From an uncultured archaeon (GTDB taxonomy: Archaea > Asgardarchaeota > Heimdallarchaeia > Heimdallarchaeales > Heimdallarchaeaceae), in contig CAZHRF010000018.1 of the NCBI GenBank assembly GCA_964534625.1, forward strand, positions 1 through 52,734: 52,734 bases of DNA, written 5' to 3'. Position numbers and translations under genes: made by a program. Every line of letters begins with the position of its first letter. Position 1 is the first letter of the stretch. The notes beneath the pieces are model-generated. The model made no database searches and was not told the origin of the DNA. It saw only the letters and a list, made by a program, of their open reading frames with translations. Shown here piece by piece: positions 3,354-32,861 of the stretch.

Positions 3354-3440
3354 ATATGAACATAGATATTTCTTTTAATATGTTTTCCTCAATGAATGTA
3401 AGCATATATTCTTTTGACATTTGAGATGCTACTGATTAGA

Positions 3441-4382
3441 CTAGTCTGATATCAAAATATCATCTAAAACAGATTCTAGATCTGGTCTTTCTGGAGGTTC
3501 ATCTGATTTTTTTAGATCACCTTCAGTTATTGCACCAGAGAGGTCTAGACCGCCCCCTCTCCTTCGTATTCGAGATGGAGAGGCTACTACCATATTACCA
3601 CTCAGCTGTTCTATTTTAGTATTAATAGTTGTTACAAGATCTACAAGTTTTGAAATTTGTTCGTTATTAAATGTACCTACGCCATCAAGATCTTTTTCAG
3701 CCTGCTTTCTAATTGCTTCTTTATCTTCCGTTGCTTTTTCTAGTTTGTCAAAACTTGAAACTTTTTGTTCTGGTTTTAACTCCGTTTGCGTTTTTACAAT
3801 TTTTCCCATATGATTTTCGGTAATGGCTTCTGCAACTTGTTCTGCCACCATATCTGATGGAAATAGCTCTGTTAATTCCGTCAACACTTGTCTCTGATTT
3901 GTTTCATTAAGATTACGTATCTTATCCCTTAATTCATCTCTCTCATTTATAAGATCTGCAAACTCACTTTCTAATGCTGAATATTTTTGTTGCAATAATT
4001 TATTACCACTATTCAATAATTTAATGAGTTTAAGCATCTTAGGAAAACTTCGACTCAGCTCAGCTGCATTCTTTTGCATTTCATGATATCTAGCAGCTGA
4101 TACAATCTTTATACCCTTTCCCTCTTTATCTCGCAGATCTTGTTCTAAGAACTCCACACGCCTTTTAAGTTCTCTATTCTGTTTCATTAGTTTATCTACA
4201 AGTAACTTAACTTTGCGGAGAGCTTCTAATAGGACCATATTACGCTGTGTTAATTCTTTAACATAAGCAGAACTATAGGTATCATGATGTAAAATCTCAT
4301 CTATTTCTTCAAATTCATTCTCATAATACTCTTTAGTTCTTGAGAATAATTTTTTTTCTGGTCCTATATTTGGATGATTCAT
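3441..4382 (-). CDS. Coiled-coil protein of unknown function
   Basis: Long heptad-rich segments; C-terminal RRRGGG and PPERPDLESVLDDILISD. Confidence 0.75.
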   Translation of the reverse strand: MNHPNIGPEKKLFSRTKEYYENEFEEIDEILHHDTYSSAYVKELTQRNMVLLEALRKVKLLVDKLMKQNRELKRRVEFLEQDLRDKEGKGIKIVSAARYHEMQKNAAELSRSFPKMLKLIKLLNSGNKLLQQKYSALESEFADLINERDELRDKIRNLNETNQRQVLTELTELFPSDMVAEQVAEAITENHMGKIVKTQTELKPEQKVSSFDKLEKATEDKEAIRKQAEKDLDGVGTFNNEQISKLVDLVTTINTKIEQLSGNMVVASPSRIRRRGGGLDLSGAITEGDLKKSDEPPERPDLESVLDDILISD

Positions 4383-25120: not shown

Positions 25121-26260
25121 ATGTGGTCTTTTTTGTCTAGTAGAGCTAATTCAGTATGGGAGAATAAAGAAGTAAAAGAACGTTTACCAATTTATAAAAA
25201 AATTTTTACAGGAGAATGTTTGCCTAGATATCAACTCGCTAAGTTATTCCATACCCCTGTAAAGAAGGATAAACAGAGTAATTTGGAGATCCATAAAAAA
25301 TATCAAATGCAATTTAAGAAATGGGTTAAAGAAAACCAGCATTTATCTCATGAAGAAGTAGAAAAAAAGGCGTTGAAACTCCATTCACTTGAAGAATTGG
25401 AACAGAATAATTATCTTCATCTAAAATCAAAAATTTTCTATGATATTTTAACAGAATGTGAATTCTGTGGAAATAAATGCCATGTTGATAGAACAGCAGG
25501 TCAAGTAGGGAAATGTTTGATAGATGACCAAGCATATGTTTCAAGTTCTTTTATCCATGTGGGAGAAGAAAGCCCCATAATACCGTCAGGTACTATTTTC
25601 TTCTATGGTTGCACAATTCAGTGTGTTTTTTGTCAAAATTGGGAAATAAGTCAAGAACATAATATTCAATCGTATAAGGGGAGAGGGATAAATGCAGAGG
25701 GATTAGTTAGAATCTATGATGATCTAAGAAAACAGGGAGCGAGAAATATCAACTTTGTAGGGGGCGAGCCAACACCAAACTTACATTTAATAGTCGAATC
25801 TTTGCTTAAAACCGATATAGATATACCTATGCTATGGAATAGTAATATGTATCTATCGAAAACTAGCATGGATTTAATAGTAGACATATTTGATATTTGG
25901 CTTCCCGATATCAAATATGGAAATGATGATTGTGGAAAAAAGTATTCTTTAGTGCAGAGATACTGGCAGGTAATAAAGCGTAATGTGAAAATGATTGAAG
26001 AGAAAGGAAGTGGAGAATATATTATTCGTCATCTAGTCATGCCCACCCATGTGGATTGTTGTTCTTTACCAATATTAAATTGGATAGATGAAAACCTTGA
26101 AACACCGCTTGTAAATATTATGGGACAATATAGACCTCAATATAAAGTAAGAAAAGACTCTAAATATCAAAAAATCAATACCTTTCCTACAAGTAAAGAG
26201 ATGACTAAAGTACGGAATTATGCAGAAGAAAAAGGCATATACTGGAAAAGTGTATCATGA
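25121..26260 (+). CDS. pflX: PflX-like radical SAM protein
   Basis: HVGEE, PSGTIFF, CTIQCVFCQN, GGEPTP, RHLVMP, NIMGQYRP. Confidence 0.88.
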   Translation: MWSFLSSRANSVWENKEVKERLPIYKKIFTGECLPRYQLAKLFHTPVKKDKQSNLEIHKKYQMQFKKWVKENQHLSHEEVEKKALKLHSLEELEQNNYLHLKSKIFYDILTECEFCGNKCHVDRTAGQVGKCLIDDQAYVSSSFIHVGEESPIIPSGTIFFYGCTIQCVFCQNWEISQEHNIQSYKGRGINAEGLVRIYDDLRKQGARNINFVGGEPTPNLHLIVESLLKTDIDIPMLWNSNMYLSKTSMDLIVDIFDIWLPDIKYGNDDCGKKYSLVQRYWQVIKRNVKMIEEKGSGEYIIRHLVMPTHVDCCSLPILNWIDENLETPLVNIMGQYRPQYKVRKDSKYQKINTFPTSKEMTKVRNYAEEKGIYWKSVS

Positions 26261-26423: not shown

Positions 26424-27623
26424 TCACAGGCTTTCAGAGAGTTCTTGCATTTGTTCTATAGTTATTTTGATATCTTCTTGAGTATTATATACGTGGGTAG
26501 ATAACTGAACTAATGATTCTTTATTCATTTCTTTTAGTTGGGTTTGAGCACACAATCCTCCGCTTCTCACTATTATTTTTCTTAAATCTTCCAATATTAT
26601 TGCCAAATCGTGAGTGTCAATTATTTCAACCTCTAAGGCCATAATCGGTCCATAACTACATCCTTCAATTTCTACGCTTTTAAAAGGTACAATACCCCTA
26701 ATCCCTTTTACTAGTAGTTCTCGTAAGTTTTTTTGATGAGCATGGATTTTTTCTAATCCTATTTCATTTAACACTTTGAAGCTATTAACCATCGAAACAA
26801 TCGCAGGAGTGTTTATGAAACCTGTTTCAAACGAATTGAATGTATTTGATAATGAATAAGTTTTTTCATCCATATGGTTGATTGAATTTGTACCTACTAT
26901 AAGTGGCTCTACATGCTTTCTCTTAAATGTCATAAATGCTGATCCCATAGGTCCTAATGTCCCTAATGGACCATTACATAGCACATAATCAGGTTGAACA
27001 TTGTCCAATGTGAGTGGTTCCAAGCCTATTGTTCTACTCACATCTAAAATGAGAGAAATGTTAAGATCTTCAAGTAATGTGGTTATTCGTTTCCAATCTC
27101 TTTTTATTCCTACTCCAACAGTTTGAGAGGATAATACAACAACTGATGTTTTGTCAGTCACTTTTTCCTTAATACTCTCTACTATATTTCTTTCATCTTC
27201 TTTGTGAAGAAAGTCTATGGTATAATTGAATAACTTCTTCCCTCTATATACAGGTCCTAACAGGGAATGGTCTTCCATCATACTAGTGAGTACATGATCT
27301 TTTTCATTCAGTTTATGAGAGAAAAGTATATTGCTCAACATCACTTCCATATCCGATGAAAATGATATATTGTCAGGAGAAATGTTAATTAGAGAACCTA
27401 ATTCTTTTCGTGCTTTTTCCAATTTAACATTGGCACAAATAGAGTATTCATGTGTTCCTCTATTTTTAACTCCTCCACATTTTTTATAATAGTCTGATAT
27501 AATATCGATCGACGAGAGGGGTAGACGTCCTATTGTTGCTGAATCTAAATAAATCAAATCATCAGGTAAAGCAAATGAAACCCCAAAATTTTCTCTATAT
27601 TCTGAACTCATCAAATATATCAT
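26424..27623 (-). CDS. SufS/CsdA-like class V aminotransferase fold protein, PLP lysine apparently missing
   Basis: IYLDSAT, RGTH, FETG, HDLA, VRSGGLCA, HVYNT. Confidence 0.82.
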   Translation of the reverse strand: MIYLMSSEYRENFGVSFALPDDLIYLDSATIGRLPLSSIDIISDYYKKCGGVKNRGTHEYSICANVKLEKARKELGSLINISPDNISFSSDMEVMLSNILFSHKLNEKDHVLTSMMEDHSLLGPVYRGKKLFNYTIDFLHKEDERNIVESIKEKVTDKTSVVVLSSQTVGVGIKRDWKRITTLLEDLNISLILDVSRTIGLEPLTLDNVQPDYVLCNGPLGTLGPMGSAFMTFKRKHVEPLIVGTNSINHMDEKTYSLSNTFNSFETGFINTPAIVSMVNSFKVLNEIGLEKIHAHQKNLRELLVKGIRGIVPFKSVEIEGCSYGPIMALEVEIIDTHDLAIILEDLRKIIVRSGGLCAQTQLKEMNKESLVQLSTHVYNTQEDIKITIEQMQELSESL

Positions 27624-27742: not shown

Positions 27743-28237
27743 ATGAACCACTATTTTTTTAATTGCTTAGAGTTTTTTCACGTAATGACTTTGAATAAAG
27801 AAGAGCTACTCAAAGAAATCAAATCAAAAACATTATCCCAATATAAACGATATGTAAAATTATTAAAGGAAATAGAATCTAAAAAGGACAGTGAGGTACA
27901 TGCTACCCTTTGGGAAGTCAGGGCTTTTTTTGAGCTCTGTCAGATTCAATTAAAACATTATCTTGATAAAGAATATATAAGTGAACCTTGGCAACATGAA
28001 TTTTTGAAGAAAAAAGAAACAAAATTTCGTGATAAAGCAATCGAGAGATTAAAAGAATTTAATCTTTCTACAAAAAAATTACAAAAAAGATTTGATACCG
28101 ACTTAGAAGCAGTTTTTCAATACATATGGAAAATAAAAGCAACTATATCTATGGTCATTGATGCCTTTCCCATTCCAAAGTATAAGCTCATTGATGGGGA
28201 ACTAAAAAGAGAGAGAGAGGATATTTTCGTTTTATAA
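27743..28237 (+). CDS. Helical hypothetical protein
   Basis: 164-aa ORF; start may be MTLNK at 27785. Confidence 0.7.
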   Translation: MNHYFFNCLEFFHVMTLNKEELLKEIKSKTLSQYKRYVKLLKEIESKKDSEVHATLWEVRAFFELCQIQLKHYLDKEYISEPWQHEFLKKKETKFRDKAIERLKEFNLSTKKLQKRFDTDLEAVFQYIWKIKATISMVIDAFPIPKYKLIDGELKREREDIFVL

Positions 28238-28389
28238 CTGATGCAGATAGACTATTCTTTCACTTGTCTTTTCTTAATTTTGGGGATTTTCGATAATTTA
28301 ATATGGAGGGGGTTTGAAAAATGAAAATATCCAATAAGTAACAAGCGTAATCTTTAAAGAATTGAATCTTTTCTTCTTTTTGTGGTAAA

Positions 28390-28884
28390 ATGAGTGATGA
28401 TAATGATTCACTAACAGATAAACAAAAAATCGCTAAAGCATTTCAAATTCAAGCTTTTACTTGTCCTCATAAAGGAGGTATTGAATATCCATGTGTGATA
28501 TGTAAACAATGCCGAGAGATGGATCTGGAACAATATGTTCTTAAAAATGGTATGGTTGAAAGAACAAAAAACTCCAGTTTAATTAGTCTTTCTTTGGATC
28601 TAAAAGATCCTTTTGATGATATGCTCTTAAATCAACTTTCTAGTGCATTAGCACAAGACACAGGCATAGTTCAAAACGAAGCAGAACCTGGTTTTTCAAT
28701 AACTTTTTATCTAACCAATGTCTTACTGGAAAGGGTTCAAGAAAAAAACAAATTGATTGAGTTTATAGCCGACTTTCAACACAAATTCCTAACAGAGACT
28801 ATCGCAGCAAGAAGTGCTCTCAATAGATGGAAAAGACAAACAACAAAAAGATTAATCAATCAAATGACAGTTATTCCAACATAG
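28390..28884 (+). CDS. ARPC4 (Arp2/3 complex p20 subunit)-like protein with N-terminal Cys cluster
   Basis: [11 protein letters not shown]..LE....KNKLIEFI..F aligns with ARPC4 [29 protein letters not shown]; also NS..S and long C-terminal helix; length about that of ARPC4. Confidence 0.78.
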   Translation: [164 protein letters not shown]

Positions 28885-28955: not shown

Positions 28956-29029
28956 GCACGCGTAGTCTAGTGGTAGGACTCGACCCTCCCACGGTCGAAA
29001 CCCGGATTCGAATTCCGGCGCGTGCACCA
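28956..29029 (+). tRNA. tRNA-Gly (CCC), intronless, CCA encoded
   Basis: Acceptor GCACGCG/CGCGTGC, D-arm GTCT..GGAC, anticodon arm CGACC-CTCCCAC-GGTCG, T-arm CCGGA-TTCGAAT-TCCGG, 3' ACCA. Confidence 0.97.
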
Positions 29030-29155: not shown

Positions 29156-29383
29156 ATGCCAACATGTCCAGATTGTGGTGGAGAAATGAAATGGCGTCCG
29201 CCTTTCTACGTTTGCCAAGAGTGTGGTCTTTCATTCCGTCGTGGTGAGGTTGAAAGAATGCGCAAGAAGATTAAGGATGAATTTCGTCAAGCTATTGGTG
29301 AAAGCGATCAAGAAAAAGAACGTAAAGAGCGCAAGAAAAAATCCGACTATTACAAATGGTTAATGAAAAAAGAAGACGATTGA
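29156..29383 (+). CDS. Small CPxCG zinc-ribbon protein
   Basis: CPDCGG...CQECG then charged helix; GGAG upstream. Confidence 0.85.
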   Translation: MPTCPDCGGEMKWRPPFYVCQECGLSFRRGEVERMRKKIKDEFRQAIGESDQEKERKERKKKSDYYKWLMKKEDD

Positions 29384-29470: not shown

Positions 29471-29728
29471 ATGACAATTATTGCCCAACATTTACGCTGT
29501 GATATGCGAGAAAAATGCGTTAGTTGTACAAAATGCATGATTTCACCTAAGGAAGAAAAAAGGTATTTTTATTGTCCGGGTTGTAAATCTGATATTCTTT
29601 GTGATCGTGGTCTCATACAGAAATTTGGTGAAGATCGTGATGGAATGATCCAAAAACAAAACCTTTGTATGAAATGCAATTCTGAAGTTGAAGAACGAAT
29701 GTGGCCTGAAGATACCGAACGTATCTGA
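29471..29728 (+). CDS. Small Cys-rich (9 Cys) metal-binding protein
   Basis: CVSCTKC, CPGC, CMKC; AGGAG upstream. Confidence 0.8.
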   Translation: MTIIAQHLRCDMREKCVSCTKCMISPKEEKRYFYCPGCKSDILCDRGLIQKFGEDRDGMIQKQNLCMKCNSEVEERMWPEDTERI

Positions 29729-29812: not shown

Positions 29813-31201
29813 TTATTCTTCTACATGTATATACAAACCAGGATCATCTAATAAATAGATTACTGCTTCTGGGTTTTCATCTAAAACTCTTTGTACTTCT
29901 TCTCTAAGGACAGATAATGGATCTTCTCCTTCTTCTTTTAGAGGTTGAATTCTAAATACAGTTTCTAATTGGTCGCCATCCATATCTGTAATCATTTTTA
30001 TATTTCCTTCGCCTACTGTCTTTAGTATTCTTAGTAGATCTACTGGTTTCTGGTTACCTATTTTGAATGTTTCAATGCCACAATAATTTTCTAAGACATA
30101 TTCTAAAGATTCTTGAAGCTCTTTGTCCTTACACTCTATCATGGTATTCTCATAATTGGCATTACCTACCCCATCTGGACAAGGAGCAAGCATCAAAATT
30201 TCTCCCTTTCCATCTTTTCTTACAGCATTCCATGCAGCATGTAAACCTTTACCTGCTTGATATAAGTTGATTCCCCAACTTTTGAGTCCTGTTATAACTA
30301 AATCTCCTGCTTTAGGTACTTTAACTGTCCGCATAGGTAAAATCTTCTTCTTTGCATCATTGTGTAAAGCTATTAAATCTCCTGCTTGAAGCGTAACAAT
30401 CTCTCCTTCAGTTACTAGGGCATCTATACCAAAGATGGTCACTCTTTTCTTTAATACTTTTACCATGTTTTTAATATCCGTAATAACAGGATTAGTCTCA
30501 TCGGCATTCCCCAGTCTACATCCAGGAACAAACCCTAATTCCTTATCAAACATTCGAGGATGATTGTAGCTTACTGTTTTACATGCAGCTATTCCAGGAC
30601 AGATTTCTTTAATTGTTCCAGCTACTCCAGCAAAATAGTGTAATTCGCTATCTGTTAAAGGGATAAGTAATGAACTCTCAAATGCTAGATTATTGAAACC
30701 CATTGGCGTACCCGCTTCACTCTCTCCTATAAACTCCGTTACATCTTTGCAAACATGTGGAATGACTTGGTTTTTATATTCTTTATAGATATCTTCTCCT
30801 ACGATCTTAGGATATTCTTTTTCATAAGGAGTCCTATGTGTTCCACAAGCAATTAAAACACGTATGTCATCTTTAGTTACACCTAAGGATAGAACTTTTT
30901 GTATAAGAATAGGAAGTAATATCTTTGTGTGTGTATTTGGACGGGTAGAATCGTCTACAGCAAAGGTTATTGGTTTACCTTTTTCATACTTTTCTTTGAC
31001 TAGTTCGTCAAAGCTCATATCTATACCCAAAGGATTCTGTAAAACTTTTTCAAGTGCTTCAGCTATTGTCCCCTCAAACTGCTTTTCTTTAGAAAATTCA
31101 GGTGGATTAAGAAAAGTAACATTATTTTTGAATGCAGAAGGAATAAATTCATCTAACATATCATCGCCCCAGCTTATTGGGGTATGTAAATATTCGGTCA
31201 T
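29813..31201 (-). CDS. larA: Lactate racemase LarA-family (nickel-pincer) protein
   Basis: DDSTRP, ACGTHR, HYFAGVAGTIKEICPG, NLYQAGKG, CPDGVG. Confidence 0.87.
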   Translation of the reverse strand: MTEYLHTPISWGDDMLDEFIPSAFKNNVTFLNPPEFSKEKQFEGTIAEALEKVLQNPLGIDMSFDELVKEKYEKGKPITFAVDDSTRPNTHTKILLPILIQKVLSLGVTKDDIRVLIACGTHRTPYEKEYPKIVGEDIYKEYKNQVIPHVCKDVTEFIGESEAGTPMGFNNLAFESSLLIPLTDSELHYFAGVAGTIKEICPGIAACKTVSYNHPRMFDKELGFVPGCRLGNADETNPVITDIKNMVKVLKKRVTIFGIDALVTEGEIVTLQAGDLIALHNDAKKKILPMRTVKVPKAGDLVITGLKSWGINLYQAGKGLHAAWNAVRKDGKGEILMLAPCPDGVGNANYENTMIECKDKELQESLEYVLENYCGIETFKIGNQKPVDLLRILKTVGEGNIKMITDMDGDQLETVFRIQPLKEEGEDPLSVLREEVQRVLDENPEAVIYLLDDPGLYIHVEE

Positions 31202-32411: not shown

Positions 32412-32861
32412 ATGTATCATGAAGAGAGCGCAGGTATTGTTATTTATAATAGTAATGGCGAATATTTGCTTTTAAACTATGGTCGGTCTTGGAACTCCCC
32501 TGATCGCTTTGGTTTTACCAAGGGACATATTGAGCAAGGTGAGTCTATCCAAGAGGCAGCCTTACGTGAGGCTTATGAAGAGACAGGTATTCAAAGTCTC
32601 AGACTCATTCCTGGTTTCAAGCATAAAGTCACCTATTTTTTTACCCGAGGAACAACGAAAATAAAGAAAACTGTAGTTTATTTTATTGCTGTCACTGATA
32701 CAAAAAAAGTTGAGATTTCAAATGAACATGTTGGGTATTGTTGGCGTACGTATGATGAAGCTCTTGAAATGCTAACTTTTGAAAATACACGCAATATACT
32801 AATTGCAGCTGAAAAGCACCTTAGGAAAAAAAATTTAACTGTGGAAACTGATGGAGGATAG
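32412..32861 (+). CDS. Nudix hydrolase, Ap4A hydrolase (NUDT2-like)
   Basis: SAG, KGHIEQGESIQEAALREAYEETG, KTVVYF, SNEH. Confidence 0.92.
   Translation: MYHEESAGIVIYNSNGEYLLLNYGRSWNSPDRFGFTKGHIEQGESIQEAALREAYEETGIQSLRLIPGFKHKVTYFFTRGTTKIKKTVVYFIAVTDTKKVEISNEHVGYCWRTYDEALEMLTFENTRNILIAAEKHLRKKNLTVETDGG

Follow-up and report, generated by a model that had tools for sequence, protein, structure and literature searches.

ARPC4 is a core piece of the actin-filament-branching machine of eukaryotic cells and, to our knowledge, the only non-actin subunit of the Arp2/3 complex with a clear relative in the Asgard archaea; we know of no characterisation of that relative. The gene described here encodes such a protein, and lies on a stretch of 52,734 nucleotides (contig CAZHRF010000018.1 of assembly GCA_964534625.1, positions 1 to 52,734, hereafter denoted the window) from an uncultured archaeon of the family Heimdallarchaeaceae. 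Passages of PMC9894260 describe how, in the eukaryotic complex, ARPC2 pairs with ARPC4 through antiparallel C-terminal helices (the axis of rotation), and how the isolated ARPC2/ARPC4 pair binds filaments with micromolar affinity. A passage of PMC7444086 names a 'distant homolog of ARP2/3 subunit 4' in some Heimdallarchaeota, in line with the statement of an earlier sequence-only reading of this DNA that ARPC4-like proteins had already been reported in Asgards; an ARPC4-type Asgard protein is mentioned in passing in PMC7522288 and PMC12583498, and ARPC4 stands among the catalogue-matched Asgard–eukaryote clusters of a 2026 preprint. The window gene belongs to this already catalogued 'ARP2/3 complex subunit 4' family of eukaryotic signature proteins, does not differ from it in kind, and is not new as such. 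Our overall reading, which we hold to be reasonably likely, is that its product is an archaeal ARPC4-like protein which stands alone in an Asgard genome of Heimdallarchaeaceae type, and is putatively metal-holding and self-pairing. The gene and its two principal features are:

28390..28884, forward strand: ARPC4-like gene, from the open reading frame (ORF) list; ATG start, 164 amino acids (aa), stop codon within the coordinates.
28462..28512, forward strand: four-cysteine loop C25, C35, C38, C41 (C-x9-C-x2-C-x2-C), a putative metal site, from the sequence and homologue conservation.
28774..28866, forward strand: long C-terminal helix, residues 129–159, predicted antiparallel dimer interface; DSSP on the model (H129–159).

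The window protein is a true homologue of eukaryotic ARPC4, which is established because profile and sequence comparisons and the fold agree. It matches the Pfam ARPC4 family (PF05856) with 35.3 bits against a gathering score of 22.2 (E 1.1e-8), far beyond chance, residues 34–156 being aligned on profile positions 36–165 of 167; a six-frame genome search with the same profile finds the gene in single copy (34.5 bits). A HMMER comparison with the chains of the Protein Data Bank (PDB) returned five rows at E<=10, three of which are distinct ARPC4 sequences (bovine/human and fission yeast; E 0.008–0.011), whilst the two non-ARPC4 rows both have E>1. The blocks aligned to the bovine, human and yeast ARPC4 chains, i.e. 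a strand near N61–S62, a PGFSITF block and a KNKLIEF block, are the same ones that the sequence-only reading had matched to human ARPC4. Its assignment of the protein as ARPC4-like holds, both in the profile match above cut-off and in the overlay of the fold on solved ARPC4 chains; the contrary outcome, a lack of any profile or structural match, did not occur.

An AlphaFold2 model built on 18 homologues (mean predicted local distance difference test score (pLDDT) 81.4; predicted template modelling (TM) score 0.72) shows, in order, two short N-terminal helices, the cysteine loop, three strands, a helix, a fourth strand, and the long C-terminal helix. A Foldseek comparison with the PDB gave 13 matches at E<=0.001, comprising nine ARPC4 chains, which rank first (E 1e-8 to 1.6e-6, TM 0.72–0.75, 156–157 columns), and four ARPC2 chains, the ARPC2 matches ranging from E 5e-4 to 1e-2. 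VIA-align overlays residues 6–159 of the model on residues 7–168 of the ARPC4 chains (Z 13.3–14.2, root-mean-square deviation 2.6–3.1 over 150–153 residues), followed by ARPC2 chains at Z 6–9.9 and by the next unrelated folds, DR_1245 and type III secretion chaperones, at Z 5.1 and below.

Like eukaryotic ARPC4 (p20-Arc, Arc19; PF05856; chain F of 1K8K, 1TYQ, 3DWL and 6W17), the archaeal protein consists of a globular α/β domain and a long C-terminal helix, and shares with it the blocks around N61–S62, the G-[YF]-x-I-[ST]-F strand and the C-terminal helix; the lengths are close (164 aa compared with 166–168 aa). It differs in that its identity to the solved chains is only 17–20%, in carrying four conserved cysteines where the eukaryotic linker is cysteine-free, in being predicted to pair with itself rather than with ARPC2, and in W147 of the pairing helix, which is kept in archaea but is not a tryptophan in the 4/4 aligned eukaryotic rows. 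ARPC2 (p34-Arc, PF04045; chain D of Arp2/3 structures) shares the fold of the archaeal protein in its globular domains and C-terminal helix; however, ARPC2 has two domains, whereas the archaeal protein has one, fits ARPC4 clearly better, and has no match to PF04045.

A word-indexed protein search gave 64 candidates, 50 of them at E<=0.001; all 50 (119–166 aa) have a precomputed PF05856 match, and the best is 96% identical to the window protein, the rest 56–67%. The named ones are each a 'hypothetical protein' of Heimdallarchaeota or Heimdallarchaeaceae metagenome-assembled genomes; apart from the one at 96%, the nearest database relatives, which include Heimdallarchaeum aukensis and H. endolithica, span 55–67% identity. 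A HMMER scan of 1.84 billion representative sequences produced 35 matches, of which 24 are archaeal-type (two of them long, fused forms) and 11 eukaryote-type, the latter including one yeast Arc19, one plant ARPC4, one named ARPC4, and others unnamed. The archaeal clusters are labelled Wukongarchaeota, Njordarchaeia/-ales, Kariarchaeaceae, Freyarchaeota/Sigynarchaeota, Hermodarchaeota and, once each, 'Odinarchaeota' and Korarchaeota/Thermoproteota. Open frames of 370–436 aa mark fused ARPC4-like forms in three families, and are of two types: one begins with an N-terminal domain that in protein P0059 matches ATC_hydrolase (V4R-like; 28.5 bits, cut-off 28.1) and ends in a short, CPxC-bearing C-terminal tail (P0059; loci L061, L077 and L062), the other a C-terminal extension of ~200 aa with no Pfam family (loci L063 and L078; protein P0070). 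In another genome of the phylum, the ARPC4-like gene contains an in-frame TAG (G289, contig C167:9317–9778).

Within the archaeal family as a whole, conservation is highest at the cysteines. In the alignment of 18 close homologues, C25, C35, C38 and C41 are invariant in all 18 rows, as are P26, Y33, P34, V36 and K39; H27 varies (H/Q/T/N/R/K) and therefore lies outside the conserved ligand set, so that the histidine of the 'CPH' motif, which the sequence-only reading had counted as part of the cluster, must be dropped from it. The pattern C-x5-10-C-x2-C-x2-6-C is present in 103 of the 107 collected archaeal sequences that cover the N-terminus, a set whose members are not independent of one another; spacings of 8/2/2 (57 sequences) and 9/2/2 (20) are the commonest, and the remaining four sequences have four cysteines, or three cysteines and a histidine, in shifted positions. 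In a diverse set of 24 archaeal rows (only 17–30% identity to the window protein), there is no variation at C25, C41 or N61, and conservation at P34, C35, C38 and S62 is at least 90%. Judged from these alignments, the archaeal family inherited the cluster from its ancestor, and it is no peculiarity of the window gene.

No cysteine occupies the cluster columns in any of the four aligned eukaryotic ARPC4 rows, as the sequence-only reading had supposed. Its description of the cluster as an extra does not stand with regard to length, and the pattern is wider than it noted. Because the archaeal protein has 164 residues compared with 166–168, and because the structural alignment runs almost end to end, the cysteines can be placed in the linker between helix 1 and strand 1; the loop stands in for this linker of the eukaryotic protein rather than being added as a further domain. 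The model is confident across the loop (pLDDT 82–88). In the mechanism that we propose, the four cysteines would hold a metal that rigidifies the loop. To judge from their pattern and conservation, they probably do bind a metal, and a structural zinc is the occupant to which we incline, by a little.

The second part of the proposed mechanism is that two copies of the protein would pair with their C-terminal helices antiparallel. Predictions with two copies, two zinc ions and a custom alignment gave interaction prediction scores from aligned errors (ipSAE) of 0.86, 0.86 and 0.85, compared with 0.00 for the best of three controls; the runs contain 117–125 contacts with a partner pLDDT of 88–90, and at least 96% of the contacts agree between runs. 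In calibration of the tool, the mark was reached for 20 of 30 proteins whose solved structures are pairs and for 1 of 23 whose solved structures are single chains, although these counts are only roughly valid here, given the custom alignment and the inclusion of zinc. The predicted interface is symmetric and comprises the helix 74–93, residues 115–125, and the C-terminal helix 132–164, with contact pairs 140:147, 136:151 and 132:155 indicating antiparallel packing of the C-terminal helices; W147 lies at its centre, and the cysteine loop lies outside it. Interface positions are more hydrophobic than those elsewhere (0.50–0.51 compared with 0.39), and the 20 best conserved positions include four that fall within the interface (L79, L87, F125 and W147). 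The predicted geometry is that of the antiparallel ARPC2/ARPC4 helices, and on this modelling we consider it fairly probable that the archaeal protein forms a symmetric version of the ARPC2/ARPC4 heterodimer at the core of Arp2/3. By analogy with that core, which attaches to the sides of actin filaments, the dimer might in the same way bind filaments of the archaeon's own actin, or else an actin-related protein; this step is a possible one, which we would not call likely.

The genome to which the window belongs (3.37 Mb in 120 contigs, 89.8% complete) contains two actin-family genes (441.7 and 279.1 bits, on contigs 5 and 2, respectively); the weaker of the two proteins is closest, amongst PDB entries, to actins rather than to Arp2 or Arp3, the top row being 'HC1 actin'. 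The partners ARPC2, ARPC3 and ARPC5, which accompany ARPC4 in the eukaryotic complex, are not detected: ARPC2 (PF04045) and ARPC3 (PF04062) have no match at E<=1, and ARPC5 (PF04699) has two chance-level matches only (E 0.16–0.20, below cut-off), in a genome of the stated completeness and in a search that did not extend to ARPC1, a WD40 protein. Because none of these three is detectable, the ARPC4-like protein stands alone; it is a member of the family by descent and not a subunit of the canonical seven-subunit Arp2/3 complex.

Several points weigh against a self-pairing, actin-binding protein. The interface is not especially conserved among close homologues (mean column entropy 0.68 compared with 0.64 bits, p 0.71) and is less conserved than the rest in the diverse set (2.54 compared with 2.28, p 0.05), and the success of the dimer model may, as the prediction tool itself warns, reflect a memory of the solved ARPC2/ARPC4 pair. 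The homodimer that the sequence-only reading had put forward finds its support in the modelling (ipSAE) and not in conservation. The best conserved archaeal residues (the cysteine loop, T59, N61, S62 and D73) lie outside the predicted interface, and for that reason the main selected function may differ from pairing; the conserved surface that these residues form may be the true functional site. The stand-alone status is itself weakened by the ARPC2 profile, which is silent in all of the control genomes, every one of them prokaryotic, leaving the sensitivity of that negative result unconfirmed. Amongst the 70 neighbouring proteins scanned, no neighbour is shared across 20 distant loci, and none links to actin genes. 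Finally, when the archaeal profile was run against six-frame translations of 400 genomes of the phylum, the family proved to be patchy (96/400 genomes, 26/85 genera): it is near-universal in some families (27/30 in the window's own, 10/12, 21/22, 6/6 and 18/19), but absent from other families in their entirety (0/135, 0/19, 0/14 and 0/12). If, as a general rule, Asgard lineages have actin, this distribution means that archaeal actin has no general need of the ARPC4-like protein.

An alternative for the cysteine site is that it binds an iron–sulfur (Fe–S) cluster instead of zinc, making the protein a redox- or oxygen-sensitive module. The genes that bear on this within the window are:

25121..26260, forward strand: radical-SAM, activase-like gene (Pfam PF04055, PF13353).
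26424..27623, reverse strand: divergent class-V aminotransferase, of the cysteine desulfurase family by similarity (PF00266, 158.5 bits; NCBIfam matches below cut-offs).

A C-x2-C-x2-C triad plus a distant Cys-Pro makes up the ligands of ferredoxin-type 4Fe–4S sites, and the 17-residue span resembles compact cluster loops; both likenesses favour a cluster. The cysteine desulfurase-like and radical-SAM genes near the window gene point the same way, as does a radical-SAM orthologue (47% identity) that adjoins the ARPC4-like gene in a second family; two distant loci, both from a third family, have 4Fe–4S ferredoxin-domain genes next to it, and in a fourth lineage such a gene stands two genes off. 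On the other hand, the last and first ligand spacings vary (2 to 5 and 7 to 9 residues), which is more usual for structural zinc sites, and Fe–S genes are common in anaerobic archaea, so that they would often be expected as chance neighbours, and the neighbours differ between lineages. Moreover, a comparison of the N-terminal fragments of eight homologues with Pfam gave no consistent zinc or Fe–S family, with scattered sub-threshold matches only (DUF7891, Mss4, zf-C2HC5 and others). We regard an Fe–S cluster as a tentative alternative, and a rather unlikely one, to the structural zinc preferred here.

The class-V aminotransferase is present in all of the 25 related loci. The radical-SAM gene is located on the other side of the ARPC4-like gene (downstream, opposite strand) in 19 of the 25 (among L008–L030), whilst in the window it lies upstream of the aminotransferase and a tRNA-Gly(CCC) gene follows the ARPC4-like gene in its stead; from this comparison, a local rearrangement has taken place. 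Adjacency to a radical-SAM gene was considered as a general link and rejected, being confined to two related families; the radical-SAM gene that adjoins in a third lineage is a different one.

It is also conceivable that the protein shares its ancestry and fold with ARPC4 and has no archaeal actin role; it would then be a small dimeric module, an adaptor or something akin to a chaperone, which eukaryotes took up into Arp2/3 later on. At Z 4–5 there is a further likeness of the fold to type III secretion chaperones, which are homodimeric, and to DR_1245; some lineages carry the fusions to an ATC_hydrolase domain or a long C-terminal extension; the neighbours are varied (Roadblock/LC7, IFT52-GIFT-like, fibrillarin/Nop, LonB and Fe–S proteins); the distribution is patchy; and an actin gene stands beside the ARPC4-like gene in none of the 20 distant loci examined. 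However, the likeness to ARPC4 is full-length and specific (Z 14 compared with 5 for the chaperones), the Arp2/3-type C-terminal pairing helix is kept and predicted to pair, and the genome does possess actin and a second actin-family protein. We regard such a module as rather unlikely. With regard to the neighbours, a Roadblock/LC7 gene is found directly upstream, on the same strand, in the 3/3 loci of one genus (L068, L069 and the 3397–3842 region of L079), and an IFT52-GIFT/ABC_transp_aux/DUF4350-like gene beside the ARPC4-like gene in 3/3 loci of two families (L064, L065 and L080); both kinds of domain have eukaryotic trafficking relatives. Fibrillarin/Nop, LonB or radical-SAM genes are the neighbours in others of the distant loci.

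Immediately upstream, on the same strand, is a gene that the sequence-only reading had suggested as the source of a partner; it is separated from the ARPC4-like gene by a TATA-like element:

27785..28237, forward strand: upstream neighbour, a helical protein of ~150 aa with no known family (listed as ORF 27743–28237; conserved start M15 at 27785).
28353..28358, forward strand: TTTAAA, TATA-box-like element 31 nt before the start codon, read from the sequence.

The upstream protein has no Pfam or NCBIfam family, and its model (pLDDT 88.4) is a helical bundle with a small C-terminal hairpin, for which a structure search of the PDB gave nothing at E<=0.001, ARPC2 being absent from the rows listed. 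Across the related loci it is conserved at 30–40% identity, compared with 55–67% for the ARPC4-like gene; the invariant positions of the family are W43, R46, E50, W69, Q70, K84, A85 and W115. Its profile matches 43 of the 400 genomes of the phylum. Within the window's family it adjoins the ARPC4-like gene in 26/26 genomes with a match, whereas outside that family none of the 17 genomes with a match has it on the contig of an ARPC4-like gene. Eleven of these 17 belong to a single family with an upstream-ORF match in 11/12 genomes and an ARPC4-like gene in 0/12, and two families with the ARPC4-like gene in 10/12 and 21/22 genomes have no upstream-ORF match. Four of the 11 matches in the ARPC4-less sister family carry in-frame stop codons.

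That the ARPC4-like protein heterodimerises with the upstream product, as a functional stand-in for ARPC2, is very unlikely, for although 24/25 related loci have a homologue immediately upstream in the same orientation, with the adjacency complete among matching genomes of the window's family, and the protein is confidently folded and conserved, with invariant W, R, E and K positions, its fold is not ARPC2-like, the adjacency is confined to one family of close relatives and may be inherited rather than selected, the two genes are uncoupled in their phyletic distribution, and a TATA-like box stands between them. The upstream ORF was rejected as an ARPC2-like partner on fold and phyletic uncoupling, and the pair is, by the pattern of gene occurrence, inherited synteny within one family, not an obligate partnership. 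A comparable, conserved A/T box ~24–33 nt before the ATG can also be seen by eye in the short spacers of related loci; the ARPC4-like gene is probably transcribed from a promoter of its own and need not be co-expressed with the upstream ORF. In one other family, hhalign linked a 252-aa gene next to the ARPC4-like gene with the upstream family (probability 47%, 37 columns), too weakly to be used.

Immediately downstream of the ARPC4-like gene is a tRNA gene:

28956..29029, forward strand: tRNA-Gly(CCC), predicted by ARAGORN.

Beyond it are two small cysteine-rich ORFs, at 29156–29383 (forward strand, 75 aa) and 29471–29728 (forward strand, 85 aa), which have zinc-ribbon-type matches below Pfam cut-offs only; the pair is kept in 8–9 related loci at 50–72% identity, ~3.5 kb upstream of the ARPC4-like gene and on the opposite strand. 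These are followed by a LarA-like gene (lactate racemase N-terminal domain; 29813–31201, reverse strand) and a NUDIX gene (32412–32861), an unremarkable context.

The relationship of the archaeal and eukaryotic proteins was examined in an unrooted maximum-likelihood tree of 38 rows, from which the fragmentary eukaryote-like sequences P0076, P0079 and P0083 were left out. The eight eukaryotic rows form one group (support 100/100) on a long stem (2.21), and the split between the eukaryotes together with the window's family and all other archaeal rows has support of 97/92. The attachment of eukaryotic ARPC4 to the window's family is nonetheless not firm, because an alternative tree, with this family placed with the rest of its order, is not rejected (approximately unbiased (AU) test, p 0.088; the group was chosen after seeing the tree). 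A joint account can be put together, according to which an ancestral, symmetric ARPC2/ARPC4 core would have been a metal-dependent homodimer, possibly a redox-sensitive Fe–S one, clamping the sides of Asgard actin filaments; among living proteins, the form found in Heimdallarchaeaceae would stand nearest to the eukaryotic subunit, and eukaryotes would have lost the metal site when, after duplication, the dimer became a heterodimer. As a whole, we consider this account improbable.

In the open-access texts searched, taken without their supplements, neither the cysteine cluster nor an experiment on the protein came up. Neither PMC12962969 nor the preprint 10.1101/2023.03.07.531504 has 'arp2' or 'arpc' in its main text, and in PMC13716822 'arp2' stands in the reference list only; the supplements of each may list the family. 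As far as these searches go, what is new is that the four-cysteine site is family-wide, that the family reaches well beyond 'some Heimdallarchaeota' (to clusters with Wukong-, Njord-, Frey-/Sigyn-, Hermod- and Kariarchaeaceae labels), that fused forms exist, and that the candidate neighbour-partner fails its tests. The ARPC4-like protein is small, single-copy and easy to express, and the question of what it does is therefore directly testable. If the proposed reading is true, a stand-alone form of ARPC4 that pairs with itself and holds a metal would reveal the role that this core played before there was a complex.

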